Assembly (NCBI GenBank): GCA_963754875.1
Contig: CAVWHO010000020.1
Location: 64,001 to 128,000, forward strand
Direction of reading: 5' to 3'
Length of the DNA: 64,000 nucleotides
From: Nitrospirota bacterium
GTDB taxonomy: Bacteria; Nitrospirota; UBA9217
In this document: one piece after another, positions 9,043-57,514 of the stretch
How the letters are laid out: each line of letters begins with the position of its first letter
Numbering within the stretch: position 1 is the stretch's first letter
Position numbers and translations under genes: made by a program
Notes under the pieces: model-generated
Told to the model about the DNA's origin: nothing
The model's input: only the letters and a program-made list of their open reading frames with translations
Databases searched by the model: none

Positions 9043-9180
9043 ACGGTGCGACCACGGTACGAGGTTTTCAGGGCTAGTTCGTTGATTAATAATTTGGCGG
9101 GAGAGCATGAAAATTCGAACTACTGTTTGCACTTAAATTATCAAAGAGTTACAGACCTTTGCGGTACGATCACGGTACGA
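9043..9180. repeat. att junction 1: tRNA-Sec 3'-end copy (9095-9120) with arm-type repeats and IHF-like site
   Basis: tggcgggagagcatga is identical to the tRNA 3' end, followed by diverged aaattcgaac. (a/g)cggt(a/g)cga repeats at 9043, 9054, 9161 and 9172. tatcaaagagtta at 9139. Confidence 0.85.
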
Positions 9181-9611
9181 GGTTGAAAATATTCACGTTA
9201 CGCCCCCGATTTGAGTCACCCATTTGAAGGCGACCTGTCAACGGTAATTCTAATTATTCTTGCCGGGCAGTGAGACTGCAAAGTTCAGTATTCTAACGCG
9301 TTCCTAAGTAAGTATTTCTTGTATCGTATTCTGCAGGTCTATTCAAGATGCAGTTCAGAAGCATAAGTACGACTAATGTAGTGATGATTGAGTGGTTCGG
9401 CAAATGAATTGTTAATTTTGGAGCAATTGACAACAATTGCCGAAGAGCTAAAATTTAATTGGTGGCCGAAAAAGCATGGTGTTAGCGATCCGATAGAAGA
9501 AAAAAACAGTTTATAAAAAATGAAGAATGATTTTAAGATTCAATTAGAAATGGACTCCTGTAACGCAGGAAGTAACAATCGCTATCATCATAATATGCCG
9601 ATGGCAACATC

Positions 9612-10652
9612 ATGAAACAAATCCTCCAACGAGCAGCGGCTGGTTTTTATCCCGGCTATTTTTCTTTTGTCATGGCCACAGGCATTGTATCCATAGCCGC
9701 GTTGCTGCAGCGAATGGAAATGACGGCAGCGGCCCTTTTTATTCTGAATAAGATCGCTTATGCTGTTTTGATTTTTCTTATGGCCTTGCGAGGGCTGCTG
9801 TTGCCAAGAGAATTTGTATCCGACATGACAACGCCGGCCCGGGCGCCTGCACTGTTTACGATAACTGCCGGGACGTGTATTCTCGGCAGTCAATTTCTTA
9901 TTTTATCGGGATCGTTTCATGTTGGTTACTTCTTCTGGTCCGCTGGCTTATTCTTCTGGACGGTTCTCAGCTACGCATTTTTTACTGCGGTTATTATCAG
10001 GAAAGAAAAAACTACGGACGAGGGTGAGCTGAGCGGTTCATGGCTGATCTTTGCAGTCGGGACACAGGCTGCAGCTGTCGTCACCATCCTGCTCACACCT
10101 TACCTCGCCCGCGGGCAGGACGTTATGCTGCTGGTCGCATCGACCATGCACGGTGCGGGAATCGCACTCTATTTTATCCTCATTGTCCTTATAAGCCGCC
10201 GCATGATATTCTTTGAACTTGCTGCGGAAAAATTGATTCCAACCTACTGGATTAACATGGGTGCTGCCGCCATCAGCACACTGGCAGGGGCCGAACTCAT
10301 GCTGCACGCCCGCTTCTGGGGTTTTTTGCAGGAAGCGCTTCCCGCTCTCAGGTGGACGACGCTGGTGCTCTGGGCAGTGACGACCTGGTGGTTTCCCCTC
10401 CTGGTATTGCTCAACCTCTGGCGGTATGGATACAAGCGTTTTCCCATTGCCTACGACGTCGAACACTGGAGCATGGTTTTTCCGCTCGGCATGTATGCGG
10501 CATGCACGTTTCAATTCGGAGAAGCTGCAGGGCTACCAGCTCTTTTATCCATCTCCCGCTATTTGTTCTACCTTGCCCTGGCTGCATGGATACTGGTATT
10601 CACCGGTATGGTTGTCAGTCTGTTGCGAAAGTTCACTAATATCATCGCTTAA
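9612..10652 (+). CDS. TDT/SLAC1-family (tellurite-resistance/C4-dicarboxylate) anion channel
   Basis: PGYFSFVMATGIVS, YWINMGAAAIS, WSMVFPLGMY; about 10 hydrophobic helices. Confidence 0.85.
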   Translation: MKQILQRAAAGFYPGYFSFVMATGIVSIAALLQRMEMTAAALFILNKIAYAVLIFLMALRGLLLPREFVSDMTTPARAPALFTITAGTCILGSQFLILSGSFHVGYFFWSAGLFFWTVLSYAFFTAVIIRKEKTTDEGELSGSWLIFAVGTQAAAVVTILLTPYLARGQDVMLLVASTMHGAGIALYFILIVLISRRMIFFELAAEKLIPTYWINMGAAAISTLAGAELMLHARFWGFLQEALPALRWTTLVLWAVTTWWFPLLVLLNLWRYGYKRFPIAYDVEHWSMVFPLGMYAACTFQFGEAAGLPALLSISRYLFYLALAAWILVFTGMVVSLLRKFTNIIA

Positions 10653-11096
10653 TGCTGGTTTCCCTTGCTGTACTTGAATTAGGTGTGAGAGGCCAAATTA
10701 AAGAAAGACAGCCATCCAGACCTATGAGGGGCAGACCACAGCCTCCTATATTGTAGGGTCCAAGCAGTAAAGCTGGTCTGTCATATACTTTAAAACTGAT
10801 GTTTAGCCCCTCCTGAACAAGATTAATGTCTGGTTCGCTGCTGAATAATCTGTTTGTTCAATAGGAAGTTTTCTGCGGAATAACGGGCTGCTTCTAATAG
10901 TGGTAAAATTTTAATTAAGGGCACAAAGATTCTGAGGTGTTTTCGTTCAACCTGTGTAATAAAAAAGTTTCGTAAAAACTCAACTCTCTTTGCCCCTTAG
11001 ATTCACAGCAACAAAAAAAATATTTACCGTGGATAAAGGAAAGCAGGTTATGAAAATGAAGTTATCACTGTACGACTTAATGAAAAAGGAGGCCTT

Positions 11097-11399
11097 ATGA
11101 TTTCAAAGTTACTTGTACCAATAGATGGATCAAAAGTATCGCATAAAGCCGCAAAATACGCGGTTGAACTCGCCAGGCAGACAGGCGCATCTTTGGCGCT
11201 GCTGAGCGTCATTGATAATCGCTTCGTCGTCGATCAGACAGTTTCAGCTTCCGCATCGCCGACCCATTTAAAAGAGTCTGTCGAAGATTATTTGAAGCAG
11301 TCAGCGCAATCTTTCACTGACGAGATAGCAAAAGTCTGCAAGCGGAATCGCATTCAATGCAAAGCTGTTATAAAGAAATGGACAAATATCGATGCATAG
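11097..11399 (+). pseudogene. Universal stress protein, C-terminally truncated
   Basis: KLLVPIDGS N-terminus. Lacks the G-x2-G...GS C-terminal half and runs into the rubredoxin start. Confidence 0.7.
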
Positions 11400-11569
11400 T
11401 ATGTGGATACATTTATGATCCTGATATGGGCGAGCCTGACAACGAGATTCTTTCGGGCACCGGCTTTGAAAACGTGCCGGACACCTATGTTTGTCCTATA
11501 TGCGGTGCGCCCAAGGACCAGTTTGAAAAAGTAAACTGGAGGAGGATAAACGCATGGGTTATACAATAG
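11378..11569 (+). CDS. Rubredoxin
   Basis: [15 protein letters not shown]...[23 protein letters not shown]. Confidence 0.9.
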
Positions 11570-11817
11570 TTGCGCTGAAGGCTAAGATTCTGGAGATGTA
11601 CCCCGAAATTGAAAAACAAGGCATCTCAGCGAGCCTAGAATTCAGCGAGCAGAAAAATGCCTATATTGTAAAGTTCAAAAAAGAGCAGCATGAACTTATA
11701 ACGTACCTTGAGAAAAAGGATGCCGACGATTGCATGGACGGCATTAAATGCGTATATCTCGGCGTACAGATCGGACAGTTCGTAAAAAACTTCGAAATTA
11801 GAGAAAAGGATTATTGA
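11554..11817 (+). CDS. Hypothetical protein (87 aa)
   Basis: RBS ggagga; C-x5-C near the C-terminus; lies in the rubredoxin/ferredoxin cluster. Confidence 0.7.
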
Positions 11818-11837
11818 AGTCAAGAGTGGAGTGAATA

Positions 11838-12015
11838 ATGCATAAACTGCTGATAGATTGGGACACCTGTATAGGCTGTGGTTCATGCGTTGCTATTTGT
11901 CCTGCCGTATTCGAACTCAGAGATGACGAAAAGCCGGGTTTACGGCCCGGACAAGTGCGATACCTGTAATTGTCAGGGGGCAATATACGTTTGTCCTACT
12001 CAAGCGATAATTTAG
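11838..12015 (+). CDS. Monocluster ferredoxin, frameshifted (not in ORF track)
   Basis: MHKLLIDWDTCIGCGSCVAICPAVFEL, then ...CQGAIYVCPTQAII* in a shifted frame. Confidence 0.75.
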
Positions 12016-12824: not shown

Positions 12825-13999
12825 ATGATTGAAAAAGCCCTCGAAGGAAGTAAACGCTATTGGGCGTGGCTTATCTTCCTGAGTATCCTGGCGCTGGTGG
12901 GGCTCTTGTACTATCTTCGACAGTTTAGTGTCGGGTTGGGCATCACCGGTCTGGGCCGGGACGTCTCATGGGGCCTGTATATCGGCCAGTTTACCTTCCT
13001 GGTCGGCGTGGCTGCCTCGGCGGTGATGCTCGTCATCCCCTACTACCTGCACGATTATCATAAGTTCAGCAAGATCGTGATACTCGGCGAATTCCTTGCG
13101 ATCTCCTCAGTCACGATGTGCATTCTGTTCATCTTCGCGGACATGGGACAGCCCATGAGGATCATGAATGTGGTCCTGCACCCCACGCCGAGTTCCATCA
13201 TGTTCTGGGATATGATCGTTCTTGTGGGATACCTTATCCTGAACATCCTGATCGGATGGGTCACCTTGGACGCCGACCGGCAAGGGGTCCCACCGCCAGG
13301 ATGGATTAAACCTTTCATCTATTTATCCATACCCTGGGCCATCAGCATTCATACGGTAACGGCATTCCTGTACGCCGGCCTTCCGGGCAGGTACTTCTGG
13401 CTCAGCGCGATCATGGCGGCCCGGTTTCTGGCCTCGGCCTTTGCCGGCGGGCCCGCCTTCCTGATTATTCTTGCCCTGATCGTTCGGAGGCTGACGAAAT
13501 TCGATCCGGGCAGGGAGCCCATTCAGGCTCTGGGGAAGATCGTGACCTATGCTATGTTCGCAAATGTCTTTTTCCTCGGGCTGGAGTTTTTTTCAGCCTT
13601 CTACAGCAGCATCCCCGAGCACACGGTATCGTTCAAGTATCTCTATGTCGGTCTCGAAGGGCATCGTGAGTTGGTGCCTCTTATGAGGGTTTCATCAATC
13701 TTTGCGGTCCTGTCGCTGGTGATGTTGCTCATACCTTCTTTGCGGAATAAATGAGGGATCGCTCGTGATCGCCTGCATCCTGCTCTTCATCTCCCTCTGG
13801 ATCGACAAAGGATTCGGGCTGGTCATCGGCGGTTTCATTCCGAATCCCATGGGACCAGGTGCGTACCTACTGGCCGACCTTGCCCGAGATGTGGATAACG
13901 ATCGGCATCTGGTCCACGGGACTCTTGATCCTGAGCATGCTCTACAAAATTGCCGTTTCCGTCAGAATTGAGACTCAAGGCATTGAGATTAAGCATTAG
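12825..13999 (+). CDS. NrfD/DsrP-family polytopic membrane subunit, frameshifted near the 3' end; orphan
   Basis: GLGITGL.RDVSWGLYI.QFTFLVGVAASAV, DMGQP.R, WAISIHTVTAF. WIDKG.GL..GGF.PNP continues in ORF 13765-13971. Confidence 0.8.
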
Positions 14000-41908: not shown

Positions 41909-42417
41909 AATTCATTTCCAGATCCACTGACATCACTCCCGCGAAATCCATCCACCCGGTTACCTCAGTATCGTTGCTCTTGTTAGAACTGATAGCAAGA
42001 AAAGCCCCTAAATGTCTGTTCTCATAATATCATTCGGAGCAGTGACTTTTCTTACTTGCCACTTGTACTTATAACGGCAAAAAATCCAGATGCCCAAGCA
42101 TCGACAGTTACACCTGCTACACTCACAAACTCACTGCCTGTCTCCCCTGTAATATATGCCTCGTCGTTCTTTTGCATCTAGTAGAGTCGACCTGTTTATA
42201 CGGGTGGTAGTATGGATATTCCTTGTTCTCCCCATCCACTCTTGCCGCAACTCCGCATGAGGTATTTCCCTGCAATTTTCGCAGCACCATCCCGTGCTTG
42301 CACTCAGAGAGGAGGGGCTGTTCTCCGTGCGCAGTCAGTGTTCGTCCATTTTCCACGAACTTGAAACCCCACATCTTTTGTCTTATCGCGATCTTACCTT
42401 GTCGGTTAAGCGCCATC

Positions 42418-42552
42418 AGAAAAAACCTTTTCACAGTGGAAAACGAAATTGCTTCAATATTTCATTTTGAAAAGAAGGATGTTGCAGTTCCCTCTAGAAC
42501 CTTCAAGATATCAGTTAGTTGAGAATCGCCATGGTCGGGCACACCTATTGCA
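42418..42552 (+). promoter_or_regulatory. Sigma54 promoter with putative upstream activator sites for tcdh
   Basis: GGcacacctattGC (GG-N10-GC, 42538-42551); imperfect palindrome ttttcacagtggaaaa; IHF-like tatcagttagttg. All conserved in a second copy at 56704-56839. Confidence 0.8.
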
Positions 42553-42629
42553 ATATTATGCAAACAGGAACGGCGCTTAACAGGTAGCTTCATCAATTTG
42601 GGTCCAAAAAAAAGGACAAGGAGGTTAAG

Positions 42630-44167: not shown

Positions 44168-44203
44168 CAAACTGTTCGCGGGCGATCCGCGCGGAATGTC
44201 GAA

Positions 44204-44243
44204 AAACCCCTTGATGGAAGACTAGCTCTCCATCAAGGGGTTT
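44204..44243 (+). terminator. Stem-loop directly after tcdh
   Basis: aaaccccttgatgga / tccatcaaggggttt, 15-bp perfect inverted repeat. Confidence 0.7.
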
Positions 44244-44297
44244 AAGGCCCGATGCACAAGGGCGCGGCCATATACCCGCGACCATGGGAGATTAAAC

Positions 44298-45512
44298 ATG
44301 ATCAGGTCCCTCTTTGGACTTGCTTATCAGAATCTACAGGTGAAACATCTGCGTTTCTACATCATTCTGGTCAGCGTTAGCATAGTCATCGGGGCGTTCT
44401 TTGCAAGTTCTATCCTCATTATGGGGATCAACCACACTCTTAACCAGGGCCTCTCGAAACTCGGGGCCGACCTACTCGTAATTCCCAAGGAATCCCTGGT
44501 AAATCTCAAGTCGGCGCTCCTGACGGGAGAGCCTTCCGCCTTTTATATGGACAGTGCAGTGCTCGACAAGATACGGGTGCTGAAGGGCGTTAAGAAGGTA
44601 TCGGGACAGATTTTTCTGACCAGCGCAACGGGAGATTGCTGCGTCATGGGAAATTCATTTCTCATTGGTTTCAATCCCAAAGATGATTTCACCGTGATGC
44701 CGTGGGTGGACAAGAGCGTAAAGGAACCGTTCCCGCCCGATGGAGCGATTGTCGGCGCAATGACGCCCTGGAATCTGGAGGACGGTCTTAAATTCTACGG
44801 TGTTCGTTTGAAAGTATGGGCCAAGCTCGAACGGACCGGGATCGGATTGTACGATAACGCAGTTTTTTTCAATATCGACCGGGCCTATGAAATGTCCGAG
44901 AAGTCGCAGCGCGATTCATTGGTGAAGCCTCTTGCGCCGCTGAGAAACAGAATATCCGGCGGATTGGTCCAGCTCGACGTAGGGGCAAAAATCCCGTTCA
45001 TCACATTTTCGATCCTGAAGGATAATCCCAGTCTGAAGGTGGTGACCACGGGAAATATCGCGACCTCGGCTCGGCAGACGACGGTAGCCGTATTTTTTGG
45101 CATCGTCGTGCTCATCGTTGTCCTCATTCTGTCCAATGTCCTTATGATTAATGCCATATTCTCCGCTGTTGTGAATGAACGCAAAAGAGAAATCGGCATT
45201 ATCAGGGCTATCGGGGCTACAAAAGCCAATATATTCATGCTCATCCTTTATGAATCGACCCTGATCAGCGTCATCAGCGGCTTTATGGGCATGGTCATCG
45301 GGGGAGTTCTCCTGAAACTGTTCCAACGGTCGATTATCTTTTACCTGAAAATGCTCAACATACCGTTTATGCTGCCGCCCTTCGAAATGATCGCATCAAT
45401 GATGGTGGGAGCGATTGGGGTGGCTCTTATCATGGGGGTAAGCGGGTCGATGTATCCGGCCATCCTCGCTGTGAGGATAGATCCTCACGAAACTATGAAG
45501 CAGGGGTTATGA
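44298..45512 (+). CDS. MacB/FtsX-type ABC permease
   Basis: LGADLLVIP, periplasmic CC pair, ERKREIGIIRAIGA. Confidence 0.88.
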   Translation: MIRSLFGLAYQNLQVKHLRFYIILVSVSIVIGAFFASSILIMGINHTLNQGLSKLGADLLVIPKESLVNLKSALLTGEPSAFYMDSAVLDKIRVLKGVKKVSGQIFLTSATGDCCVMGNSFLIGFNPKDDFTVMPWVDKSVKEPFPPDGAIVGAMTPWNLEDGLKFYGVRLKVWAKLERTGIGLYDNAVFFNIDRAYEMSEKSQRDSLVKPLAPLRNRISGGLVQLDVGAKIPFITFSILKDNPSLKVVTTGNIATSARQTTVAVFFGIVVLIVVLILSNVLMINAIFSAVVNERKREIGIIRAIGATKANIFMLILYESTLISVISGFMGMVIGGVLLKLFQRSIIFYLKMLNIPFMLPPFEMIASMMVGAIGVALIMGVSGSMYPAILAVRIDPHETMKQGL

Positions 45513-45513
45513 C

Positions 45514-46245
45514 ATGGCAGACTTCATTCGGACTCGTGCACTAAAGAAGATCTATTATCTGGGTGATCAGCGAGTTGAGGCCCTGAAGGGCGTCGATCTC
45601 GACATTCCCTCGTCTGATTTCGTGGTCTTTATGGGCCATTCGGGATCAGGTAAGACCACGCTCATCAGCACCATCGGCGGGCTTACGAAACCAACCGAGG
45701 GGACAGTATCAATCGATGGCGTTGACATCTGGAAACTGAACGACCGGGAACTTTCCATCCTGAGGAACCGCAAGATCGGTTTCGTCTTCCAGTCCTTCAG
45801 TCTGCTGTCGACGCTGAACGTCCTCAACAATGTCGTTATGCCTGTGATATTCAACAAGAACGGGGACCGCGATGCGGATGTCGTCCGAGATCGTGCGATA
45901 TCCATCCTCGAGGGTCTCAACATGAAGAAAAAGATCGAGTCATATCCTTCGGAACTGTCGGGGGGGGAACAGCGGCGGGTGGCCATTGCACGTGCGCTCA
46001 TAAACGACCCCGACATTATCCTTGCCGACGAGCCGACCGGCGAGCTCGATATCAGAACGGAGCAGGAGGTCATTGACATCTTCCGGATGATCAACACGCA
46101 ATACAAAAAAACCATAATCGTTGTGAGCCACAGCCTCACCTGGCTCGAATCTGCTAAGACGGTTGTCGTCATGAAGGACGGGTTTTTGTACCGGGATGTG
46201 GCAGATCCCGTTGAGGCCTTGATGGGAAAGATTTGCAAGCCATGA
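45514..46245 (+). CDS. ABC ATPase (LolD-like)
   Basis: GHSGSGKT, LSGGE, ILADEPTG. Confidence 0.92.
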   Translation: MADFIRTRALKKIYYLGDQRVEALKGVDLDIPSSDFVVFMGHSGSGKTTLISTIGGLTKPTEGTVSIDGVDIWKLNDRELSILRNRKIGFVFQSFSLLSTLNVLNNVVMPVIFNKNGDRDADVVRDRAISILEGLNMKKKIESYPSELSGGEQRRVAIARALINDPDIILADEPTGELDIRTEQEVIDIFRMINTQYKKTIIVVSHSLTWLESAKTVVVMKDGFLYRDVADPVEALMGKICKP

Positions 46246-47690
46246 CCATCCTGAAATTCGCGCTACTTGACCTGATGCGCAGGCCGAAAAAGAGCGGGTT
46301 GATCGTTTTTGCGATCGTCATATCCGTTGCGCTCCTGTCTTCGCTTTCGATCGTAAGCACTTCGGCGACGTCAAACATACTGGAAGTGATCTCAAAGACA
46401 GGTCATACGCTGACCGTTCGTCCCGTCATAACCGCCGCTATCGACGAGGCGGACAAGAGTGCACTGCAGAACCTCACCATTTCGGAGGTGGTCTTCGGCA
46501 AATATATACCCGAGTCGGCGGTGCAGGAGATTTCAAGGACATATGACAAGGCAATTCGGGAGGGATGGGAACGGAAAGGCGGGCTGGTCAGCAACCCGGG
46601 AATCCCGGACACGAGCATCGTACCGCCGACCTGGGCGCCCCGGCTCTACGTGAAGGCGGTGGTGGACGGTCATGAGGCTATCGTTACGGGAATCGATATC
46701 ACCAAGGAATATTTCGTCCGTTTCTGGTGGACCTTGTCCAGCGGCGAGTGGCCGAAAAATGTGGATGTCAAGAATGTCGATACGAAGATCGATGCCATGT
46801 ATGTCATGGGGCGCGACGGACAGGTAACCGTGAAGAAGCCGAAATACCGGCTCGATGAACAGGGGAAGACAATATACGATGACAGTCATCATGACAACGC
46901 TACCGGGTCATCAGACGATAAGCTGCGCCATTTTGCCTATGGGCATGGAGCCGCCGATGAGATCAGAAACGATGCCTATCTCGGGGGGGGGTATGCCGCC
47001 GCCAGGAGACTGAAAGTCGGAGATACCATGACGGTTGCATCGCGACAATTCAAGGTCATGGGCGTCCTGGAGGAAACGAACTCCGCCGATGATTATATGG
47101 TCTTTATTCCGTTGTTGACGGCCCAGAAAATGTTTCACAAGGAAGGATATATATCGCTGCTGAGCGTCAGGGCCATGTGCCCTAACTGCCCCGTTGGAGA
47201 CGCCATGGTGGAGTTGAACAAGAACATCACGGGCATTACCGCGGTCTCCCAGCTCGACGTCGCGGGTTTGCAGTTCGACTTTTTTAATATGCTGTATCGC
47301 TTCCTCTTGGCAGTGGTGGTTGCCACCATTGCCGTGGGTATCTTTTCGATCTTCAACATTGTCGCCGGCTCTCTGTACGCGCGGGCGCGGGAGGTCGGCC
47401 TGCTCAAGGCGGTCGGCGCATCGCGTTTTCAGCTTGTCAGGATATTTCTGTACGAACACCTTATAATCGGGATCATTGCGGGGCTCGGCGGATTTGCGGC
47501 GGGTGTCGGCATGGCGCATATCATGAATACGTTCCTCGGTATTGGAGCGGTCGTCCGGGTCGAGGTTGGGGTGCTATGGCACGCACTGGCTCTCGGCATA
47601 ATTTGCAGCCTCCTCGCCATTTATTACCCGGCATATAAACTGTCGGGTATAAAGATCACGGAGACGTTTCGAACCCAGTGGGAGGTTTAG
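46242..47690 (+). CDS. MacB/FtsX-type ABC permease with CxxC motif and His-containing insert
   Basis: MCPNCP, DDSHHDN insert, REVGLLKAVGA. Confidence 0.88.
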   Translation: MTILKFALLDLMRRPKKSGLIVFAIVISVALLSSLSIVSTSATSNILEVISKTGHTLTVRPVITAAIDEADKSALQNLTISEVVFGKYIPESAVQEISRTYDKAIREGWERKGGLVSNPGIPDTSIVPPTWAPRLYVKAVVDGHEAIVTGIDITKEYFVRFWWTLSSGEWPKNVDVKNVDTKIDAMYVMGRDGQVTVKKPKYRLDEQGKTIYDDSHHDNATGSSDDKLRHFAYGHGAADEIRNDAYLGGGYAAARRLKVGDTMTVASRQFKVMGVLEETNSADDYMVFIPLLTAQKMFHKEGYISLLSVRAMCPNCPVGDAMVELNKNITGITAVSQLDVAGLQFDFFNMLYRFLLAVVVATIAVGIFSIFNIVAGSLYARAREVGLLKAVGASRFQLVRIFLYEHLIIGIIAGLGGFAAGVGMAHIMNTFLGIGAVVRVEVGVLWHALALGIICSLLAIYYPAYKLSGIKITETFRTQWEV

Positions 47691-47691
47691 G

Positions 47692-48882
47692 TTGAACTTA
47701 TTGTCGCTCGTGACTAAGGACATCATGCGGAGAAAGGGGAAAAGCGTTTATCTGCTGACCGCCATGCTTATTCCTGTTGTTATTCTCAGTACGATCCTGC
47801 TGACGGTCGACAACGCGGACAGGTCCCTCGCGACCCTCGCCTCGAAATTCGGCTTTACCATGACTGTGCAGCCGAAGAACATCAAGGTCGAGCGGATCGA
47901 TCAGATCGGTGTGGTGATTAATGAGTTCCTGCCGGAGACCGTCATGAAATCAATTGACGAGATTGTCAGGAAAAGGACAGGGAACAAGCAAGAAGCGATT
48001 ATCATCGCGCCGCGGATATACCAGCGGACGGATACCGTGATCCGGAAGTCTTCCGTCAGTACGGTCGTCGCCGGTATCGATTTTCAATCCGAACGAGCGG
48101 CCAAACCGTCCTGGAGTCTGGCGAGCGGGCAATGGCCGACGGGAGAAGGGGAGGCTGTGATAGGCGGGACTTTTGCCCGCGCGAACAATCTCTCGGAGAA
48201 TGCGGTAATCTCGGTGGACGGCAGGGCCTTTACGGTTGCGGGTATCCTTAAAAATTATAACGTCTCCGACGATTATATGGTTTTTGTCCCCTTCAGTGTT
48301 CTCCAGGCCCTTTCCGATAAAAAAGGTTTCTTATCGCTCGTAAATGTGCAGAATGTTTCCCTTGACCGGGATCGGAACCTCCTGCGCGATGTTGTCACTG
48401 AATTGAACAGCACCATTCCCGACGTCAAGACCCTCGTACCTCAGCAGTTTAGCACGATGAAATATGTCTTTCTCAAGAAAACCTTCAAATTTCTCCTTTC
48501 CATCGTTGCGTCAACGGTGTTCATCAGCATATTCGCGATCTTCAATATCGTTACGAGTGTACTCTATTCCCGCATCAGGGAGATTGGCCTGCTGAAGACC
48601 GTGGGTGCCTCGCGGTCGCAGCTGCTTCTCGTTTTTCTCGGCGAGTACTCAGCCATGGGCCTCGCGGCCGGTATCGCGGGTTATCCGATCGGCATGGTGA
48701 TGACCTACGTCCTCGATTCCTTTGTTCTGAACCTTGGCGCAGGCGTCCATTTTAGCCTCTCAGTGTTTCTTGCTGCGATCGCTTCCGGTATTCTCTGCAG
48801 CCTGGTGGCTGGCTTTTACCCAACCTACAAGCTGTCGGGGATAAAAATATCGGACAGCTTCAGATCCCAGTGGGAGGTGTGA
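47692..48882 (+). CDS. MacB/FtsX-type ABC permease (paralog of the preceding gene)
   Basis: REIGLLKTVGA; shared C-terminus YKLSGIKI...FR.QWEV. Confidence 0.88.
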   Translation: MNLLSLVTKDIMRRKGKSVYLLTAMLIPVVILSTILLTVDNADRSLATLASKFGFTMTVQPKNIKVERIDQIGVVINEFLPETVMKSIDEIVRKRTGNKQEAIIIAPRIYQRTDTVIRKSSVSTVVAGIDFQSERAAKPSWSLASGQWPTGEGEAVIGGTFARANNLSENAVISVDGRAFTVAGILKNYNVSDDYMVFVPFSVLQALSDKKGFLSLVNVQNVSLDRDRNLLRDVVTELNSTIPDVKTLVPQQFSTMKYVFLKKTFKFLLSIVASTVFISIFAIFNIVTSVLYSRIREIGLLKTVGASRSQLLLVFLGEYSAMGLAAGIAGYPIGMVMTYVLDSFVLNLGAGVHFSLSVFLAAIASGILCSLVAGFYPTYKLSGIKISDSFRSQWEV

Positions 48883-49607
48883 TTTTGGACAACAACGAAG
48901 GGGAAACATTCCTGGAACTTCGGGATGTCAGCAAGGCATTCAGACTGGCGTCGGGGGAGGTAAAGGCACTCGACGGCGTTTCTCTCAGCATCGGAAGGGG
49001 CACACTGGTCGCACTTGTGGGACCGAGCGGGTCTGGCAAGACCACCCTTCTCAATATCATCGGTGCTCTTGATAAACCGTCCCAGGGGGAGGTGCTGCTG
49101 GAGGGGATCAGGATCGACAGTTTGTCGGAAGAGAAACTGGTCCAGTTCCGCAGAGAGAAGTTCAGCTTTATATTCCAGGACGCAAAACCACTGCGTATGC
49201 TGAACGTGCTCGAAAACACACTGCTCCCTTTCAGCTTTTTCAAACCGAAGCACAGCAGCGGGAGCATAAAGGACACCGGAATAGAGATAATCAAATCCCT
49301 GGGGCTAGGGCATCGGCTTTACCATATGCCGAGCCAGCTAAGCGGCGGAGAGATCCAGCGTGTGGCCATTGCCCGTGCGCTGATAACCCGTCCGGCAGTC
49401 ATCCTTGCCGACGAACCGACTGCCAATCTCGACCGGGATAACCGGCTGTTCGTTATGGAGACCTTTAAACTACTTTCCCGCGAGCGGGGGATAACCATAG
49501 TATTTTCCACCCATGACCTTGAGATAGCTAATAGCTCCGACCGTATCATCCAGATGAAGGACGGCGTGCTGTTAAAGGATGAGTCTCCCTTGTGCCCGGT
49601 CTGTTAG
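48870..49607 (+). CDS. ABC ATPase (LolD-like)
   Basis: GPSGSGKT, LSGGE, ILADEPTA. Confidence 0.92.
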   Translation: MGGVILDNNEGETFLELRDVSKAFRLASGEVKALDGVSLSIGRGTLVALVGPSGSGKTTLLNIIGALDKPSQGEVLLEGIRIDSLSEEKLVQFRREKFSFIFQDAKPLRMLNVLENTLLPFSFFKPKHSSGSIKDTGIEIIKSLGLGHRLYHMPSQLSGGEIQRVAIARALITRPAVILADEPTANLDRDNRLFVMETFKLLSRERGITIVFSTHDLEIANSSDRIIQMKDGVLLKDESPLCPVC

Positions 49608-49643
49608 ATATAAGGGCGTGGCGCCAAAAGAAAGGGTGCAGGC

Positions 49644-50318
49644 ATGAAAAGCAAAACTGATATACTTGCTGCCCTGAAAAGCAGGAAAATGGCTGTTGCG
49701 TTCGTGACGGCAATCGTTGTCCTTCTGCTGGCGGACATCGTTGTCGGACGCTGGCAGGAAAGTATTATCAGGGGAAAAGAGGCAGCGATTAAACGCCTCC
49801 AGGCGCAGGCGTCTCGCATGCTTTCCGTCGATGTTCGCGATATCACCGAAACGGCCGGCATCACTCACACGGGACGTTATGAAGTGCTCATACGGATAGA
49901 CAACGTCGGTGAAGAGCCGGCCTACTTGACGCACCCATCAGTGAAGGCCTACATTCAGACCGGAACCATCTCGTGGACAGAAGTGCCCGTAGCGGAAAAG
50001 GCCGGTGAGAAACAGGAACAGGTATACAAGATCGCAGAAGGTCACCTGCTTTTCAGAAAAATACTTACGGTCTCCCAGCGTTTACCCTACAACAAATACC
50101 TGATCCCGAAGTACATGCATGTGCGGTTCTATATAACCATGGATGTCCTTCCGGAAAGCGGTTTTAAGGAGGGAGAAGTCGTTGAAAGGAAGAGCGATAT
50201 CTACATTTATCTTAAACCCTACTGGATCAGCCGAAGGGAAATCGCTAAGGCGATAGATTTCGGTGACACGAAGATCCCGGTTTATATGCCTATATCGTCG
50301 TTCAGGAACTGGAACTAG
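49644..50318 (+). CDS. Membrane-anchored protein of unknown function (paralog 1)
   Basis: N-terminal TM; AYIQTG..SWTEVP, YMHVR and YLKPY shared with the next gene. Confidence 0.8.
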   Translation: MKSKTDILAALKSRKMAVAFVTAIVVLLLADIVVGRWQESIIRGKEAAIKRLQAQASRMLSVDVRDITETAGITHTGRYEVLIRIDNVGEEPAYLTHPSVKAYIQTGTISWTEVPVAEKAGEKQEQVYKIAEGHLLFRKILTVSQRLPYNKYLIPKYMHVRFYITMDVLPESGFKEGEVVERKSDIYIYLKPYWISRREIAKAIDFGDTKIPVYMPISSFRNWN

Positions 50319-50368
50319 TTGACGTCCCGGCGCGCTCGTTCGGAGTCTGTCGACGGGGGGATTACGAA

Positions 50369-50995
50369 ATGCTCAGAAAAAAGAAACTGATCGCCTCGCT
50401 TATCGGGGTTGTCCTCCTCTTCGTTGTCGCTGATTACCTGGTCGGGCTGAAAGAGACCGCCATCATCAGGGAAAAGGAGGCAAAAAAGGAGCGGCTGGAA
50501 AAAAGGGCCTTCTATCAGATCATGCCCGACGTCGAGGACGCACGGATCATCAAGGGAAAGCCGGGGCAATACGAGATTGTTATCAAGATAGAAAACCTTG
50601 CAGATGAGCCCGTGTATATATCCTATCCGCAAGCGGTTGCGTACGTTCAGACCGGTATGTCCTGGACGGAAGTCCCTGTACGCGAGGGCGAACGAAAAGC
50701 GGAGGAGCAGGTCATCCGTATTGAACCGGGAGTCCATCGTTACCGGAAGATTATCACGATCAGCCGCTCTATAAAATACAGCTATTATCAGATGTTTGGT
50801 TACATGCACGTCCGTGTCCGTCTTTCCCTGTTCGTGCTGCCGGAAAGCGCCTTCAAGGAAGAAGAGGTCGTTGACCGATATTCGGATGCTTATATGTATT
50901 TGAAGCCCTATTACATCACTGACCGGGAGATCGCCCGGCAGGTGAAATTTCCAGACAACAAGATACCCGTTATGATACCGATGCCGCCCCATTAA
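50369..50995 (+). CDS. Membrane-anchored protein of unknown function (paralog 2)
   Basis: N-terminal TM; AYVQTG.SWTEVP, YMHVR, YLKPY. Confidence 0.8.
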   Translation: MLRKKKLIASLIGVVLLFVVADYLVGLKETAIIREKEAKKERLEKRAFYQIMPDVEDARIIKGKPGQYEIVIKIENLADEPVYISYPQAVAYVQTGMSWTEVPVREGERKAEEQVIRIEPGVHRYRKIITISRSIKYSYYQMFGYMHVRVRLSLFVLPESAFKEEEVVDRYSDAYMYLKPYYITDREIARQVKFPDNKIPVMIPMPPH

Positions 50996-51015
50996 GAAAA
51001 AGGAGGGAAAAAACA

Positions 51016-51429
51016 ATGCGTACGGATACGATGTTAAGGTGGACAGGGGTTTTCTCCATCTTGGCAATAAGCGTTTTCCTGATGGCCTTCGAGCAGAAAG
51101 GAATCAATAGCGAACAGGGATTCTACTCGATCGATGTGCAGTGCGCTGCAAATCCGGTGACGGTTGGCAAAAACAACATGACTGTCACGATAAACGATGC
51201 GAAATCCCTGAAGCCCTTCGAAAAAAAGCTGACTGTTGAAGTGATTCCCTGGATGCCAACCCATGAGCACGGCTCGAGTGATATTGCGTCGGTGACATAT
51301 CTCGGGAAGGGACTGTATCGTGTTGAAGGAATTAACTTCACTATGCCGGGGGAGTGGGATGTATACTTCAAGATACGAGACGGAAGCAAAGAAGATTCTG
51401 CGGTTTTCAACGTTAACATTACCCCATGA
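51016..51429 (+). CDS. YtkA/FixH-like exported protein, candidate Cu chaperone
   Basis: Signal peptide; WMPTHEHG and FTMPGEW Met/His motifs. Confidence 0.7.
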   Translation: MRTDTMLRWTGVFSILAISVFLMAFEQKGINSEQGFYSIDVQCAANPVTVGKNNMTVTINDAKSLKPFEKKLTVEVIPWMPTHEHGSSDIASVTYLGKGLYRVEGINFTMPGEWDVYFKIRDGSKEDSAVFNVNITP

Positions 51430-51555
51430 TCGTCGTTCAATGATCTTTCTTCGGCGGCAGGGCGCTATAAAAAAGCGGCATCAGGAACTGGTATTTCATC
51501 ATTCACCGTCCTGCTATATAAAAAAACATTTCTGAAGATAGAGTTCAAAGACGTT

Positions 51556-52077
51556 ATGCCGAACGCCTGTCTGAAAAAAGCAGTACCTATCTGCATGTTT
51601 GTCGCCCTGTGCGCGTATGCTGGAGCCGGATTTGCAGGGAGGATGACCCCGGACCACTTCGCCGCGGAAGTGTCGAACATTACTTATCAGAACAACGACG
51701 AGTACCTTGTGGAAATTACCATAACAAACAGTTCTAATGAAACAGTGGTTCTGGAAGGATATGAGGCGAGTTTTTCCGTACAGAGCGAAATCCTTGGCCA
51801 GTGGATTGAACTTAGCCATCGCGCGGTCGGCGTTCCGGGGCACCCTGCCGGGCTCGCTGCTCTCAGCGGAAAAAAATGGAAGACCACGGAGACCGTAATT
51901 ATACCGTTCGCTGGTCCTCACCTGTTCAGAAACCATGAGGGTGATATGAATTTGCTGTTCCGATATAAGCTCAAATTAACTGGTACCTCATCTTCCCGAG
52001 AAGGTGAAGACGGTGGAGAAAGTGCTTATTGGGTGACGCCGCAAACAGACCGGTGGGTGCTCAGGGAGGGGATGTAG
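51556..52077 (+). CDS. Exported hypothetical protein
   Basis: Signal peptide; Ig-like beta pattern. Confidence 0.7.
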   Translation: MPNACLKKAVPICMFVALCAYAGAGFAGRMTPDHFAAEVSNITYQNNDEYLVEITITNSSNETVVLEGYEASFSVQSEILGQWIELSHRAVGVPGHPAGLAALSGKKWKTTETVIIPFAGPHLFRNHEGDMNLLFRYKLKLTGTSSSREGEDGGESAYWVTPQTDRWVLREGM

Positions 52078-52307
52078 AGGCGACATTCACCATGCCGTTA
52101 GATCTCGTGGTACGAGTGGTGAGTTTGCAGATCAGCGAGCTGGTTTCCCGGACTAAGATCCGGCATATGGCATAATGTGATGATAACTTATCTGGTTTTT
52201 TCAGGGTGCCGTTGTGATATAATATAACGTCAACGAAAGATTAGGAGCGGTTTGCGGTTATGAACGGCAGAAGGGGCGTCAAGAAGGGTCTTCCGAAGGA
52301 AAGGAAA

Positions 52308-52604
52308 ATGAGGCTAAACTGCTGGGAAGTCATGAAGTGCGGAAGGGAACCCGGAGGGAGCAACGTAGCGGCACACGGGATATGCCCTGCCGTGACCTGC
52401 GCAAAGCTTGACAGCGCTCACGGAGGGAAAAATGCGGGCCGTGTGTGCTGGATCGTTGCCGGCACGATGTGTGGTGGAGAGATTCAGGGGAGTTTCGCTC
52501 GAAAATACTCCGACTGCCGGAAATGCAGGTTCTACCAGATGGTAATGGAAGAAGAAGGGCCGAACTTTCATTTAACAATAGACCTTGTAGAGTGGCTCAA
52601 ATAG
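52308..52604 (+). CDS. Small Cys-rich 'two-CW' domain protein
   Basis: NCWE..KCGR, CPA, GRVCW.VAGT.C, C..C.FY. Confidence 0.75.
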   Translation: MRLNCWEVMKCGREPGGSNVAAHGICPAVTCAKLDSAHGGKNAGRVCWIVAGTMCGGEIQGSFARKYSDCRKCRFYQMVMEEEGPNFHLTIDLVEWLK

Positions 52605-52606
52605 GC

Positions 52607-53950
52607 TCATCTAATACCGTATCTATTCATCTTACGCCAGAGCGTCGTTCTGTTGGTTCCCAGTTCTCTGCATACTTTGCCCAGATTGTGGTCGTTCCTT
52701 TCGATGCTTTTCACGATGACATCTTTTTCCCATTCTTCCAGGGTGCCGGGATTTTCCTCTTTGCTCGCGCCGATAGACATGTCAAACAGTTGGTTTGTAA
52801 ACCCGAGCGACAGATCGGGTACTGTTATCACCAGCCCCGTTGCGATTGCTGCAGCACTGGTTATGATGTTCTGCAGTTCACGCACATTCCCGGGGAAGTC
52901 ATATCGGTAAAGAAATTCCAGGGCTTCCGGCGACAGGTCAATATCAGGTTTGCTGTGCGCGACCCTGACGTTTTTCAAAAAATTTTGAGCCAGGACGGGA
53001 ACATCCTCCGGTCGCTCCCTGAGCGGCGGGATGTGGACTTGGGTGACCTTGATTCGGTAATAGAGGTCTTCCCGGAATGTGCCGTTCTCAACGGCCTGTT
53101 CAAGATTCCGGTTCGTGGCGGCGATTATCCTGACATCCACACCCCTGTGTTGGTTCTCACCCACCCGTCGGATAGTTCGGTCCTGCAGAACGTCAAGTAA
53201 CTTTGCCTGCATGGTATACGGCATAGCACAGATCTCATCGAGGAACAGGGTCCCGCCGTTCGCTTCTTCAAATAAACCTTTTCTGTCAAGAATCGCTCCG
53301 GTAAACGCTCCCTTCACATGACCGAACAGCTCGCTTTCCAGCAGGTGTTCTGGGACGGCGGAACAGTTTATGGCCACATACGATTTCCTGCTTCTGCAAC
53401 TGAGGCTGTGCACCGTTTTGGCGACGAGGTTCTTTCCGGTGCCTGTCTCTCCGGATATAAGGACCGTCAGATCCACTTGAGCAATCTTGCGTATCTTGGC
53501 AATCAGCGCTTTTGTTGCATCACTGTATCCAAGGATGGGAATCTCGCTGTCATTTGTCTCATGCAGGGACGTTATCTCGCGTTCCGTCTCTATATGGGTC
53601 AGGGACTTTCTTACCCGGTGAAGTATCTCTTCGTTCTTAAAAGGCTTTACGATATAATCGAAAGCCCCGAGTTTCATGGCCAGGACGGCGGAATCGACCG
53701 TACCGTACCCCGTCATGATGATCACGTCAGCCTGGTGATGTCTTTCGAGGACATAATACAGAACGTCGAGTCCGGTGCCCGGCGACATTTTCAAGTCCGT
53801 AATAACTAGATCAAATTGACCTGAGGCGAGGTGTTCGGCGGCGCGCTTTCCGTTTTTCGCCTCTTCCACCGAATAACCTTCTTTCCGCAAGAGAATCACG
53901 AGGCTCCGTCTCATGCCGTCCTGATCGTCTATTACTAGTATCTTGGCCAT
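52607..53950 (-). CDS. Sigma54-dependent response regulator (NtrC family)
   Basis: Receiver domain, GETGTGK, GAFTGA, PGNVREL, Fis-type HTH. Confidence 0.95.
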   Translation of the reverse strand: MAKILVIDDQDGMRRSLVILLRKEGYSVEEAKNGKRAAEHLASGQFDLVITDLKMSPGTGLDVLYYVLERHHQADVIIMTGYGTVDSAVLAMKLGAFDYIVKPFKNEEILHRVRKSLTHIETEREITSLHETNDSEIPILGYSDATKALIAKIRKIAQVDLTVLISGETGTGKNLVAKTVHSLSCRSRKSYVAINCSAVPEHLLESELFGHVKGAFTGAILDRKGLFEEANGGTLFLDEICAMPYTMQAKLLDVLQDRTIRRVGENQHRGVDVRIIAATNRNLEQAVENGTFREDLYYRIKVTQVHIPPLRERPEDVPVLAQNFLKNVRVAHSKPDIDLSPEALEFLYRYDFPGNVRELQNIITSAAAIATGLVITVPDLSLGFTNQLFDMSIGASKEENPGTLEEWEKDVIVKSIERNDHNLGKVCRELGTNRTTLWRKMNRYGIR

Positions 53951-53988
53951 TTACTCTCCACTTCTGTCCGGCCGCCCACCATTCGCTC

Positions 53989-55733
53989 TCACGCTCGGTC
54001 GCCCTCACATGCGGCCTCAACCGTCTCGGGGGCGGGGAAATTAAGCTGAACATGGGTTCCCTTCCCCGGGGTGCTGGAAAGAAGAACGTACCCGTTGTGT
54101 TCCTTCACGATTTTGTGCACGATATTGAGCCCCAGGCCCAGTCCCGAGTCTTTTGTCGTGAAAAAAGGTTGAAAGGCCTGCGACACGACTTCCGGAGACA
54201 TACCGGCACCGGTATCGGCTATTGAGATCTCCACTTCGTTCTCGGACCGCTTGAACCGTGTTGAAATGGATACTTCTCCTCCTGCCGAAATAGCCTGCCG
54301 GGCGTTGATCAGCAGGTTGAGCAGGATCTGTCTGAATCGGTTCTCTGTCGAGCATCAGCCGGGGCACATCCGGCGCGAAGGAGTGCTCGATCCGGACCTT
54401 CGTCCAGCCTAACTTGTCGCTCCGGAGCAGCGAGATCGTTTCCTGGATGAGCGGGTGGACATCGGTCGCCTCCATCTTCAAGAGCGACGGGCGGGCGAAG
54501 CTTAAGAAATCCTCGGTCATATTGTTGAGCCGGTCCATTTCTTTTTCGACGATCCCGATCAATTCGAGATCGTCGCGGCCTAACGAGCTGTACCGTTTGA
54601 GCGCACCAAGAGAATTGGAGATGGCGCCGAGAGGGTTCCTGATTTCATGTGCCACCATGGCGGCCATTTTGCCCAACGAAGCAAGCTTTTCCGATTCCTT
54701 TAGGTATTTTTGCGTCGTTTTCAGTCGGTCATAAGCATCGCGGATCTCGAAGTTTTTCTGCTCGATCTCCCGGAGGAAGTTAGCCAGCTTAATCTTTGAT
54801 TCATGAAGGCGGTACACGGTGTGGGTGAATCCGTAAACAAGGCCGATGAGTAGACCTGAAGATATCATTACCTTGATGATATGCCAGTACCACCAGAGGG
54901 GATCCCAGAGTTTTGAAAAGGAGAACAACAGCTCACTTTCAAAGAAAAGGAGAGCTGCCGTCCCGAAGATCAGGTAAATGACGTCATTTGTTTTCAAAAA
55001 ACCTTTTACGAAAACGAAGCCTACAAGGAGATACAACATGCCTGCAATGAAATTGACAGCGTAAATCAAATTGCTAAATTGTCCTCGTACCTGGATCGCA
55101 CTCGCACTGTGCGGAGGCCTTATTGACAAGACGTTGGGAATGATCTCGACCATTCTCGTAGCCAGCAGGGCGAGTAGGATGATCAGGACGATCCCCGAGG
55201 CAACGAGACCGCTTCTGGTCCATGATGATTTTGCAGGTTCGCCCATCTTTTTGTTCAGAAAGGTGGAACCCGCGAGGAATACGAGACCCGAAAAAAGCGC
55301 TGCAGGAATGGAACCAGACAAAAGTGTTGTAATCATAATCGGAAAAAGCGTGAAAGATGTCGAGGATGCCGATCGAAAAGAATGCAAAGACTAGCCAGAG
55401 GATGTTTTTCTTCCCCGAAAGCTGGTATTCCCAGGCCAGGATGAATGCTATGATGCCGGAGATGAGTCCGCAGAATAGTTCAAGTGTCGCATGTTTTGAA
55501 GCATCTACAAAGAACAGATTGTTTGCCGCTGGTATGACGAATGGCTCGACGATAGACAAGGAGGCAACAGTAGCCAAGGTGAAAAAAGTGAGGAAAAGAA
55601 GCTTGTTTCGGTTGATCGGGGAGTGACCGCTTTCTACATCATCCAAGCGAAATACCACATACCTGAGCAATGGCTCCTCGTAATTCACGGAGAGCAATTT
55701 CCTCAAATGACTGATTACGCGGTGTATTATCAT
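53989..55733 (-). CDS. Multi-TM sensor histidine kinase (split by two frameshifts)
   Basis: Hydrophobic N-terminus (ORF 55074-55733), AHEIRNPL H-box, D.G.G...PFFTTK..GLGLGL in ORF 53989-54234. Confidence 0.88.
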
Positions 55734-56015
55734 TCCGAAGGTCCTGAAGAGGAATTTGCAAGGATTGCAACCAGAAAAAGTAAACTGCCATCAAACCGGT
55801 ATGACATGGGCGGGCTGCTCTCAAAAGACAGAGCTGTTCTCGGCAACACTGCTTAACTCTGTCCCCATATGTTTAATGTTACACCATATTGCAAAAAAAT
55901 ACTACTGCTGCGGACATATGAAAGAGACGTACTTGAGACTGGACTGAGGTGCGAGGAGGGAAATAACGGTTTGCATTGAAAACTTGTCTTTTATTTTTTC
56001 TCGTTTTTTTGTTTT

Positions 56016-56186
56016 TCAGACTGGCTTGTTTTTGGATTCATCTTCTCCTGAAATGGCTTTCTTAAATGATTTTATACTTTTCCCTAGACCTTCTCCAATT
56101 TCCGGTAGCTTTCCAGGGCCAAAAATTATTAACACGATAAAGAGAATTACGAGCAAATGCATTGGCCGAAAAAGTCCTTCAAACAT
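56016..56186 (-). CDS. tatA: Twin-arginine translocase subunit TatA
   Basis: [39 protein letters not shown] aaggag. Confidence 0.92.
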
Positions 56187-56480
56187 AATTAATTTCTCCT
56201 TTGACATACTACTATTTTTTGACGTTAGAAATACCAATTTGTATATTTGTAAAATATTTGCATAGAAGAACGGTTTCAATTATTAAATGGGTGATATAGG
56301 TAGGCAAGCATAGATTTAGGTCCAGATCTTGCTCGCATGACTGCCGCATAACTTTTATCCTATATCTGAGTTGCCGAGTGCGCGACATCTCCTAGACTGG
56401 CTGCGCAGTTTCTCTAATAAAAATGCGTTATTCATGGCCAATTGATTTCCGAATATTATGAGCAAAAAAAGGCGCAATAC

Positions 56481-56618
56481 TAATGTAGGATCGCCGAATA
56501 TGGTGGTTCCGCGGTTTCGGGTGGCACTCCCACTTTTATAGAACCCGCTTTAGATACCACCCCGGCTACCGTACTAGCAAATGCCAAGTTTGAACAAACT
56601 ACGACTTGTTAAATTCAT
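56481..56618 (-). pseudogene. Degenerate copy of the 5' end (Tat signal region) of tcdh
   Basis: Reads MNLTSRSLFKLGI/ASTVAGVVSKAGSIKVGVPPETAE/TIFGDPT versus tcdh MKVTRRNLFKLGIASAVAGVVAKVGSLKVGLSSNTAEAGIFGDPT; two indels. Confidence 0.8.
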
Positions 56619-56703
56619 TTTAACATCTTTTGTCATTTGTTTGGGGTCACATCCCGATGAAGTTAAATATTAAGCACCTCTTTTCACCTCTTATCAGTTA
56701 CAC

Positions 56704-56839
56704 TGCAAAACGTATGCCCGACCATGCCTGTTTTCAACTAACTGATTCCTTGGAGGTTCTAGATGGAACCGCACAGTCCATCTTTCCAAATTGAAACATT
56801 CAAAGAACGGGGTTTTCCATTGTGAAAAGAGTTTTTTCT
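56704..56839 (-). promoter_or_regulatory. Second copy of the tcdh sigma54 promoter, facing tatA
   Basis: Minus strand reads ttttcacaatggaaaa...tctagaacctccaaggaatcagttagttga...catggtcgGGcatacgttttGC. Confidence 0.8.
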
Positions 56840-57415
56840 TGCACAGACCATCAGTCTAATCCTCGCTACTGCCTACTCATTTACTTTCTGGCTTCTTCTA
56901 AATAATTGGTATTCTTTGATTTAGCTTGCTTTGAGGCACTTCGGTGGATCTTGGAGACGAGTTTCAGTATATGTTCCATGATCTACTAATTTTGCCTGGC
57001 AGGTTTGCTCGCTTCTTATGGTGTTGCTTGCGCAATCATTTATCTCTAAAAAAAATATAGCGCATTGCGTAATGTCCGCCAGTAACATGTGGATATCTGC
57101 CTTGGGGCGGAAACGTGATGACTTTATAGTTAATATAAATTGATATTTATTCCGTCGGAGCAGGCGGCTGCAGAAGGATAGCGATTTACTATGGGACGAG
57201 CGTAAACAATATCATGGCAGCGATGGAATAAACGGCATAGCGGAATGATTTCAGGAAACGGAAACTCGGGCACGGTTTATTATCAAGGGCAATAATCAAT
57301 ATTGGGCTGTCGCTGCGGATATGTAAGTGGACTAGACGGACTGGGAGGAACAAAATAAAGTAGATGCCACGGTATGAGGTTTTAAAACGTATCTATTTGA
57401 AATTAAATGGAAAAT

Positions 57416-57514
57416 TGGCGGGAGAGCATGAGAATCGAACTCACCTCACCGTACTCACGCACGGTGACAGCGGATTTGAAGTCCGGGACGGGCACCAGCT
57501 CCGTAACCTCTCCC
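57416..57514 (-). tRNA. selC: tRNA-Sec (anticodon UCA)
   Basis: CUUCAAA anticodon loop, UGGU D-loop, 9-bp variable arm, GUGAG-UUCGAUU-CUCAU T-arm, GCCA end; near selA/selB. Confidence 0.93.

Follow-up and report, generated by a model that had tools for sequence, protein, structure and literature searches.

At least four blocks of accessory genes, 12–20 kb in size, bounded by attachment (att) sites and lacking an insertion enzyme, adjoin the gene for selenocysteine tRNA (tRNA-Sec, selC) in a Nitrospirota bacterium (assembly GCA_963754875.1, here G000). They were found in a stretch of 64,000 nt, referred to below as the window (positions 64,001 to 128,000 of contig CAVWHO010000020.1, or G000:C20:64001-128000), and coordinates are those of the window unless a contig is named. 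We interpret the stack as a series of phage and satellite shells that were emptied, refilled and possibly remobilised, and assign to this reading as a whole a probability of about 0.6. An origin from temperate phages and phage satellites, considered separately, appears highly probable because the same ends bound a prophage or satellite-like elements in related genomes, where the integrase gene ends within the distal arm. The locus also shows where uncultured Nitrospirota keep modules for nitrate reductase, CO dehydrogenase (CODH) and thiocyanate dehydrogenase (TcDH).

Layout of the array and its junctions

The tRNA-Sec gene was located at 57416-57514 on the minus strand by ARAGORN and Rfam, the latter giving no other match, and its last 24 nt (57416-57439), from the T-loop to the CCA end, constitute the duplicated att core. 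The original prediction, made from the letters of the window, that exact repeats of this 3' end lie at 29571 and 41824, and a diverged one at 9095, was borne out: the 24-mer is exact at 29571, 41824 and 57416, with no matches in 100 shuffles, and the copy at 9095 consists of 16 exact nt followed by one substitution and one inserted base. The core-to-core spacings of 15,592, 12,253 and 20,476 nt likewise agree with the predicted units of about 15.6, 12.3 and 20.5 kb, which are numbered outwards from the tRNA as unit 1 (41848-57415), unit 2 (29595-41823) and unit 3 (9120-29570). The genome search that had been proposed with the prediction extended the array beyond the window. A fifth core copy, matching at 23 of 24 positions and carrying degenerate arms, was located 7.6 kb outside the left edge of the window (C20:56424); it forms the distal core of unit 4 (16.7 kb, C20:56448-73094), which occupies 1-9094 of the window. 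All matches in the genome other than the array copies have five mismatches, and the titles of records containing the 24-mer are nearly all Nitrospirota.

Beyond unit 4 lies an outermost unit (unit 5) of 43.5 kb, with a class C right arm (see below) and no distal att, which extends to the host cytochrome c7 gene ending at C20:12913. In relatives, the tRNA-Sec end abuts the terminator of the cytochrome c7 gene in 17 of 42 tRNA-end rows, as counted by eye, and from the position of this gene it follows that about 108 kb have been inserted in G000 relative to the empty-site relatives, in units of 15.6, 12.3, 20.5 and 16.7 kb together with the 43.5 kb lacking a distal att. Conserved host genes for an Na/H exchanger, an MFS protein and selB (57679-63753, minus strand) flank the array.

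Every junction reads right arm, IHF-like site (integration host factor), tRNA core, IHF-like site and left arm, and is thus the right end of one element joined to the left end of the next. Judged by sequence, the junctions qualify as lambda-type (heterobivalent) att composites, with core, IHF-like site and an arm-repeat pair 41–43 nt out, at fixed spacing. The duplicated stretch also matches the T-loop/junction subsite of tRNA genes, a named integration subsite (PMC4383910). The arms are direct repeats with an 11-nt period flanking the core, and a degenerate pattern for the arm pair matched four times genome-wide, always at the array junctions. Four arm classes were distinguished, A (CGGTAYG), B (CTGTAY), C (GGGGAGA) and D, and from unit 1 outwards the series reads A/A, B/B, A/A, degenerate A/A and then a class C right end. 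Of the 13 two-ended units in all genomes, 12 had the same arm class at either end (permutation p 1e-5), with classes partly assigned by eye and single arms counted. Left arm pairs begin 41–43 nt from the core in 16 of the 22 left ends, with or without an integrase. Eight of nine flanks fit the IHF consensus with at most one mismatch, compared with 3.4% of 3,000 AT-rich windows, and the genome encodes five IHF/HU-family proteins.

At the tRNA-proximal end of unit 1 (57370-57402, plus strand), a single class A arm (57370-57376) is followed by a weak IHF-like site with two mismatches (57390-57402). Junction a3 (41777-41907, plus strand) carries, on the unit 2 side, class B arms at 41777 and 41788 and an IHF-like site before the core (41824-41847) and, on the unit 1 side, an IHF site without mismatches (41867-41879) and a class A arm pair at 41890 and 41901. 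At junction a2 (29532-29654, plus strand), unit 3 contributes a single class A arm at 29532 and an IHF-like site, followed by the core (29571-29594), and unit 2 contributes an IHF-like site (29614-29626) and a class B arm pair at 29637 and 29648. Junction a1 (9044-9179, plus strand) has a class A arm pair at 9044 and 9055 and an IHF-like site on the unit 4 side, a core (9095-9119) in which the substitution and the insertion both fall in the T-loop part, and on the unit 3 side an IHF site (9139-9151) and a class A arm pair at 9162 and 9173. Thus core, IHF-like site and class-matched arms are kept at both ends of units 1–3, as attL and attR, with partial erosion in units 3 and 4. From the chemistry of lambda-type sites, the damaged a1 core would be expected to impede the excision of unit 3 or unit 4 by itself. 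Over 66 nt, the right ends of unit 4 (9054-9119) and unit 3 (29531-29594) have 91% identity, and in both the spacer between arm and core is shortened, which suggests either sibling elements or a duplication.

That unrelated contigs were fused through the repeated 24-mer is extremely improbable. The assembly is rich in frameshifts (29 of 156 genes outside the array) and no public run was found to contain at least half of the sampled words, the runs available being contigs of other organisms whose shares reached at most 0.12. However, arm classes agree across 12–20 kb within units, independent assemblies show the same architecture, and a repeat of 24 nt is not long enough to mislead an assembly whose contigs are this large.

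Integrases in the array, the genome and its relatives

No recombinase, relaxase or phage gene was detected in the units with Pfam (63 window and 38 upstream open reading frames, ORFs) or NCBIfam (25 window ORFs), as had been predicted, and PHROGs found no phage gene among 29 unannotated ORFs. The sole mobile gene in the units is an IS200 transposase in unit 2 (39272-39715). Tyrosine recombinases are absent from C20:13-121 kb, the 14 PF00589 matches in the genome all lying elsewhere, and resolvases are absent from C20, with two PF00239 matches elsewhere. Integrase remnants, which it had been proposed to seek in the four junction zones, were not found there by tblastn, six-frame and C-terminal hidden Markov models or DNA alignment; the C-terminal model recovered all six integrase-bearing control ends. 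Overall, a remnant was seen in 0 of 16 integrase-free left ends, compared with 6 of 6 controls. A six-frame search with the family profile gave no match in the array, and those in the rest of the genome were weak, Xer-like or distant, although this assembly is 90% complete and the absence of an integrase from the genome is not proven. Integrase-free units also occur in G001 (99% complete) and G002 (100%), where no close integrase homologue was found (best scores at most 100 bits). Viral contigs yielded no helper when searched by core, integrase or arm pattern. The prediction had ascribed the array to an integrase supplied in trans or from a unit outside the window. A single enzyme provided by this genome or by such a unit is not supported: none was found, and the three arm classes in the array indicate different integrases.

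Such integrases are encoded at selC in related genomes. A profile built from three selC integrases and searched in 64 family genomes matched ten, five of which carry the gene at selC and the others mostly at other tRNAs or tmRNA. The enzymes are tyrosine recombinases of about 390 aa with an N-terminal CxxC...CxxC motif (Zn-ribbon); R225, K260, R324 and Y355 are invariant and H346 near-invariant, and 91 homologues were found. Structural modelling (pLDDT 92.7) gave Tn1549 Int and lambda Int as best matches and predicted a Zn-ribbon and beta-sheet at the N-terminus, a candidate arm-binding domain. The gene lies at the tRNA-distal end of its unit and its last codons form the arm repeats. Class C integrases are 67–90% identical among themselves, about 55% identical to class A and 34% to class D.

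The state of the integrase is graded among these relatives. It is intact in G073, G069, G041 and unit 1 of G012, frameshifted in G006, reduced to a C-terminal half with stops in unit 3 of G012, and absent from unit 2 of G012 and from the units of G001, G002 and G010. In G012, an intact class D element nearest the tRNA is followed outwards by an integrase-free class C unit and a class B unit with a half-deleted integrase pseudogene, the last having 340 nt of its right end in common with unit 2 of the window (74% identity). This right-end stretch of unit 2 (41484-41823), shared with G012 and partly with G001, includes what resembles a decayed start of an IS3-type orfA.

In G073, the class A unit proved to be a prophage of 43.6 kb, whereas units of G069, G012 and G006 are satellite-like elements of 9.6–12 kb with genes for replication, primase, terminase or head protease. 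Scanned with PHROGs only, four of the five integrase-bearing units carry genes for capsid, terminase, replication initiator, DnaC, primase or head protease. Genes typical of prophages and of satellites resembling phage-inducible chromosomal islands (PICIs), for integrase, replication and packaging, are thus present in relatives' units and absent from those of the window. The integrase-free units of relatives carry insertion sequence (IS) elements and host-type genes, and no capsid or terminase gene (Pfam, 93 ORFs). The predicted build-up of units in tandem at a single att site through tyrosine integrases is supported, and the comparison of relatives at selC, also proposed earlier, revealed cassette-wise variation.

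Several other recombinases were encountered. Tyrosine recombinases linked to tRNAs in units of G001 and G012 were rejected as cognate enzymes, as they lie beside Y2 transposases and are IS91-type. More distant Zn-ribbon integrase relatives occur at other tRNAs and tmRNA (L094-L098, L101), and in L096 and L097 the reading frame continues into the tRNA gene. The class C elements of G041 (L110:8445 to L111:3666) and G006 (L078:9137-9805) encode a second, short tyrosine recombinase of 210–222 aa near the tRNA-proximal end. A second island stack is present on the 5' side of tRNA-Sec, at G002:C2:1517263-1622945 (105 kb), G012:C1:747306-831536 (84 kb) and G001:C1:856632-881633 (25 kb). In G002 and G012, its boundary is a duplicate of the 5' half of the tRNA that reaches as far as the anticodon arm, and a different integrase of about 360–400 aa (L054, L029, L059) may serve this stack. 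Moreover, L030:4098-6493 carries two tRNA-Sec ends that appear complete, separated by 2.4 kb and each lying behind a terminator of its own.

In integrons, a row of cargo units is split by recombination sites, and the array resembles them in this respect. The original prediction took the likeness further, to an integron-like platform for energy modules. Purpose-built cassettes served by a single integrase encoded at another place in the host genome or the array would be in line with the lack of an integrase or remnant in any unit, with cargo extending to within 112–152 nt of the core, with the variable number and order of cassettes among relatives and with an assembly that is 90% complete. Such a platform is nevertheless very unlikely, given the three arm classes in one array, the Xer-like nature of the best genome match to the integrase family (about 25% identity), the location of the cognate selC integrases on prophage- or satellite-like elements (5 of 64 family genomes) and the internal mosaicism of the units; the near-complete G001 and G002, in which no close homologue was found, already point the same way. 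Nor was an intI linked to the array, an attI or an attC-type site seen: the junctions are tRNA-derived cores with direct-repeat arms, and none of the 25 longest inverted repeats of 84 falls at one, no attC model having been run. Unlike integrons, the array has double-stranded lambda-type ends, units of 12–44 kb and several specificities. An integron-like co-orientation was also considered and rejected: 86% of ORFs in units 1–4 are on the plus strand, yet other parts of the contig reach 78–80%, and orientation is mixed in relatives' units. Of the original prediction, the lack of an integrase in the units stands; the integron-like platform goes too far in view of the prophages and satellites with the same ends in relatives, the graded loss of their integrases and the mosaic units.

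For the shells that we favour, the following course of events is proposed. Phages and satellites of several classes would integrate in turn at the restored tRNA end, each newcomer crossing over at the T-loop and displacing its predecessors outward; three or more integrase specificities (classes A, B and C) would have been at work. Integrase and phage genes would then be deleted up to the arm, host-type modules would enter the shells via IS-driven or illegitimate recombination, and the arrival of a matching integrase could release shells that remain intact, alone or by co-excision, as for cis-mobilisable elements (CIMEs).

Cargo and fate of the units

The predicted change of cargo from TcDH to CODH to nitrate reductase at successive junctions was upheld. 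Unit 1 carries a TcDH-like gene whose product matches PDB 5f75 (E 1.5e-116), ABC/FtsX transporters, a YtkA protein and a sigma54 two-component system. Unit 2 encodes a radical SAM protein, a CODH of the anaerobic type (cooS 33166-35058; TIGR01702 above cut-off), a PAS-domain protein, a CBM48 protein and an M50/CBS peptidase. In unit 3, narGHJI with an FmdE gene (22335-29417) is accompanied by genes for a SLAC1 channel, Usp, hemerythrins, PAS-GGDEF and ferritin-like proteins and c-type cytochromes, and by a lone dsrP paralogue (12825-13754), 76% identical to a copy on C19 and without neighbouring dsrMKJO genes. The part of unit 4 in the window encodes a 2,887-aa GH94 protein, RNB, DUF1003 and BON proteins and an extra FtsH.

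The units are mosaics of modules which relatives hold elsewhere. The TcDH gene is present in 5 of 64 family genomes. In G068, a member of another genus, the unit 1 module has a counterpart with 94% identity along 9,063 nt, which lies 790 kb from selC with no arms in the 74 kb examined. Unit 2 combines a CODH module (92% identical to G050) with a PAS-protein module (83–87% to G001, G067, G012, G065 and G010). The nar and ftsH modules of units 3 and 4 recur in G002 at 83–86% and the GH94 module at 73–77%, compared with 74–75% for host genes; these copies lie within the 105-kb island on the opposite side of the tRNA, and homology stops 112 and 152 nt before the cores. The cargo is therefore a shared accessory pool, recently transferred and independent of the ends. 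The earlier view of a platform for energy-metabolism modules goes too far, as much of the cargo is unrelated to energy metabolism and the modules sit elsewhere without these ends.

The breaks in narG, narH, TcDH and sensor-kinase genes were rejected as signs of decay. Outside the array there are 37 frameshifts in 190 kb, some perhaps in the reference proteins, the chance of narGH breakage is P 0.08, and the kinase and TcDH indels are absent from contigs of other runs; the split genes are probably assembly errors. Inverted repeats at 42420-42739 and 56508-56836 were considered as element ends and dismissed, since the region upstream of TcDH in G068 and G012 matches them. At the far end of unit 1 they form an inverted duplicate, 75–78% identical, of the sequence upstream of TcDH together with the start of the gene; contigs of other runs cover it as well, and it is possibly a shared regulated promoter. 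Directly abutting the arm of unit 3 is an internally deleted start of an MFS gene (29380-29530), whose paralogue is intact at C20:17563. A group II intron with reverse transcriptase and maturase pieces directly follows the terminator of the first cytochrome c7 gene (L001:9330-12350, G000:C20). In the outermost unit, clustered genes for very large DUF11 repeat proteins with OmpA, TPR and ExbB-type genes (L002:10589 to L003:15974, G000:C20:30.6-56 kb) look like a surface adhesin export system.

Shells of the same phage and satellite origin could also be dead scars, their ends out of use, which serve as neutral landing zones ("grounded prophages") and gather genes through IS activity and homologous recombination. 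We regard this as possible, though on balance unlikely. It accords with the lack of a helper in G000 and in the near-complete G001 and G002, the eroded ends, the occurrence of cargo without these ends in G068, G012 and G057 and on the opposite tRNA side in G002, the many IS elements in relatives' integrase-free units and the failure to find a whole unit shared. On the other hand, among 13 integrase-free left ends found by their core, ten keep the arm pair with at most two mismatches and no detectable integrase remnant, and one further end alone keeps a long remnant; a crude model of uniform deletion gives p 0.016, the ends not being independent. The arm block is also better conserved than host genes: the left end of unit 1 is 90% identical to that of G001 over 88 nt, compared with 82–84% for host genes. 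Among eight integrase-free class A left ends, the IHF and arm block averages 81% identity, which falls to 53% just beyond (28 pairs). The same end sub-types have differing distal neighbours, and in run X6 one contig connects a right end of the unit 2 type straight to the tRNA body; another joint in X6 (48395-57408), with a 30-nt side, was treated as chance. Continued remobilisation of the shells is slightly favoured, and units 1 and 2, whose ends are intact, would probably be excisable or co-excisable on a visit by a phage or satellite of matching class. We are doubtful of the stronger proposal that the units are att-only cargo shuttles, integrase-free cassettes of 10–25 kb barcoded by arm class, which would move between Nitrospirota genera with an integrase, and perhaps a capsid, borrowed from matching prophages or satellites, and supply an expanding tRNA-Sec array with modules for the respiration of nitrate, CO and thiocyanate.

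Several points weigh against the reading as emptied, refilled and possibly remobilised shells. The end of the G073 prophage is only 60–66% alike in the IHF and arm block, implying that the direct parent is unsampled, and the integrase-bearing unit of G041 lacks a phage hallmark. None of nine class A ends of the window's sub-type was found with an integrase, and no remnant ties the window's own left ends to one (p 0.13-0.98). Four of the class A ends that were compared came from a search with the arm itself, so that their conservation is biased upward. Units 1 and 3 have single arms at their right ends, the arm-core spacer is 6–7 nt short in units 3 and 4, the a1 core is damaged, the arms at the distal core of unit 4 (a0) are degenerate and the outermost att is lost. 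The two-ended unit with mismatched arms sits in G002, and no whole unit recurs in any other genome.

Comparison with known systems

Island stacking of a known kind, namely CIME-like accretion, would best account for the array, and its new features are the phage and satellite donor family and the arm barcode. CIMEs have lost integration and transfer genes, keep attL and attR, and pile up at the 3' end of a gene as further elements arrive (PMC5704250). The units likewise lack integration and transfer genes, retain attL and attR and lie in tandem with related elements at one target, and in G012 the intact element is nearest the tRNA. They differ in that CIMEs are described as decayed integrative and conjugative or integrative and mobilisable elements (ICEs/IMEs; PMC5704250), whereas descent from these was not apparent here, the integrase-bearing relatives being a prophage and satellite-like elements with phage or satellite genes in four of five cases (PHROGs only). 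Moreover, several arm classes alternate in the array and the shells lack phage or backbone genes. For this integrase-free stack, the donor enzymes can be named and the arm barcode assigns each orphan unit to an integrase class, such that the question whether CIME-like ends persist because they are still used becomes directly testable, with matched and mismatched integrase-arm pairs as built-in controls. Island finders which need an on-board integrase, such as Islander (PMC4383910), would overlook such units. A literature search that excluded most subscription papers and all supplements found no description of selC islands in Nitrospirota.

A close parallel is provided by the ssrA arrays of Dehalococcoides, in which islands follow one another in tandem no more than about 100 kb from a single RNA gene; integration modules are missing from 15 of these islands, which carry 38 respiratory rdhA genes (PMC3146451). 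There, too, the 3' end of the recombinase gene overlaps attL. Those arrays differ in their serine recombinase DsiB, six-gene module and tmRNA target, and the lambda-type arm and IHF anatomy seen here does not appear in the available part of that account (PMC3146451). Tandems of phages and ICEs are also known, and integrase-free shells were not seen in the available text describing them (PMC13651849). Loss of the recombinase fixes grounded (cryptic) prophages, after which metabolic and stress genes accumulate (PMC6379469); these prophages keep phage genes, whereas here the att ends alone survive. Finally, in Prochlorococcus, transient integrase-bearing PICI-like elements visit the tRNA and displace older material outward, leaving partial tRNAs behind in islands where most DNA is not element DNA (bioRxiv 10.1101/2020.12.28.424599). 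This model of visiting elements also fits the array, with the differences that tycheposon cargo travels with its own integrase and that the Prochlorococcus leftovers, as described there, lack clear boundaries, whereas in the Nitrospirota array both ends are often kept.

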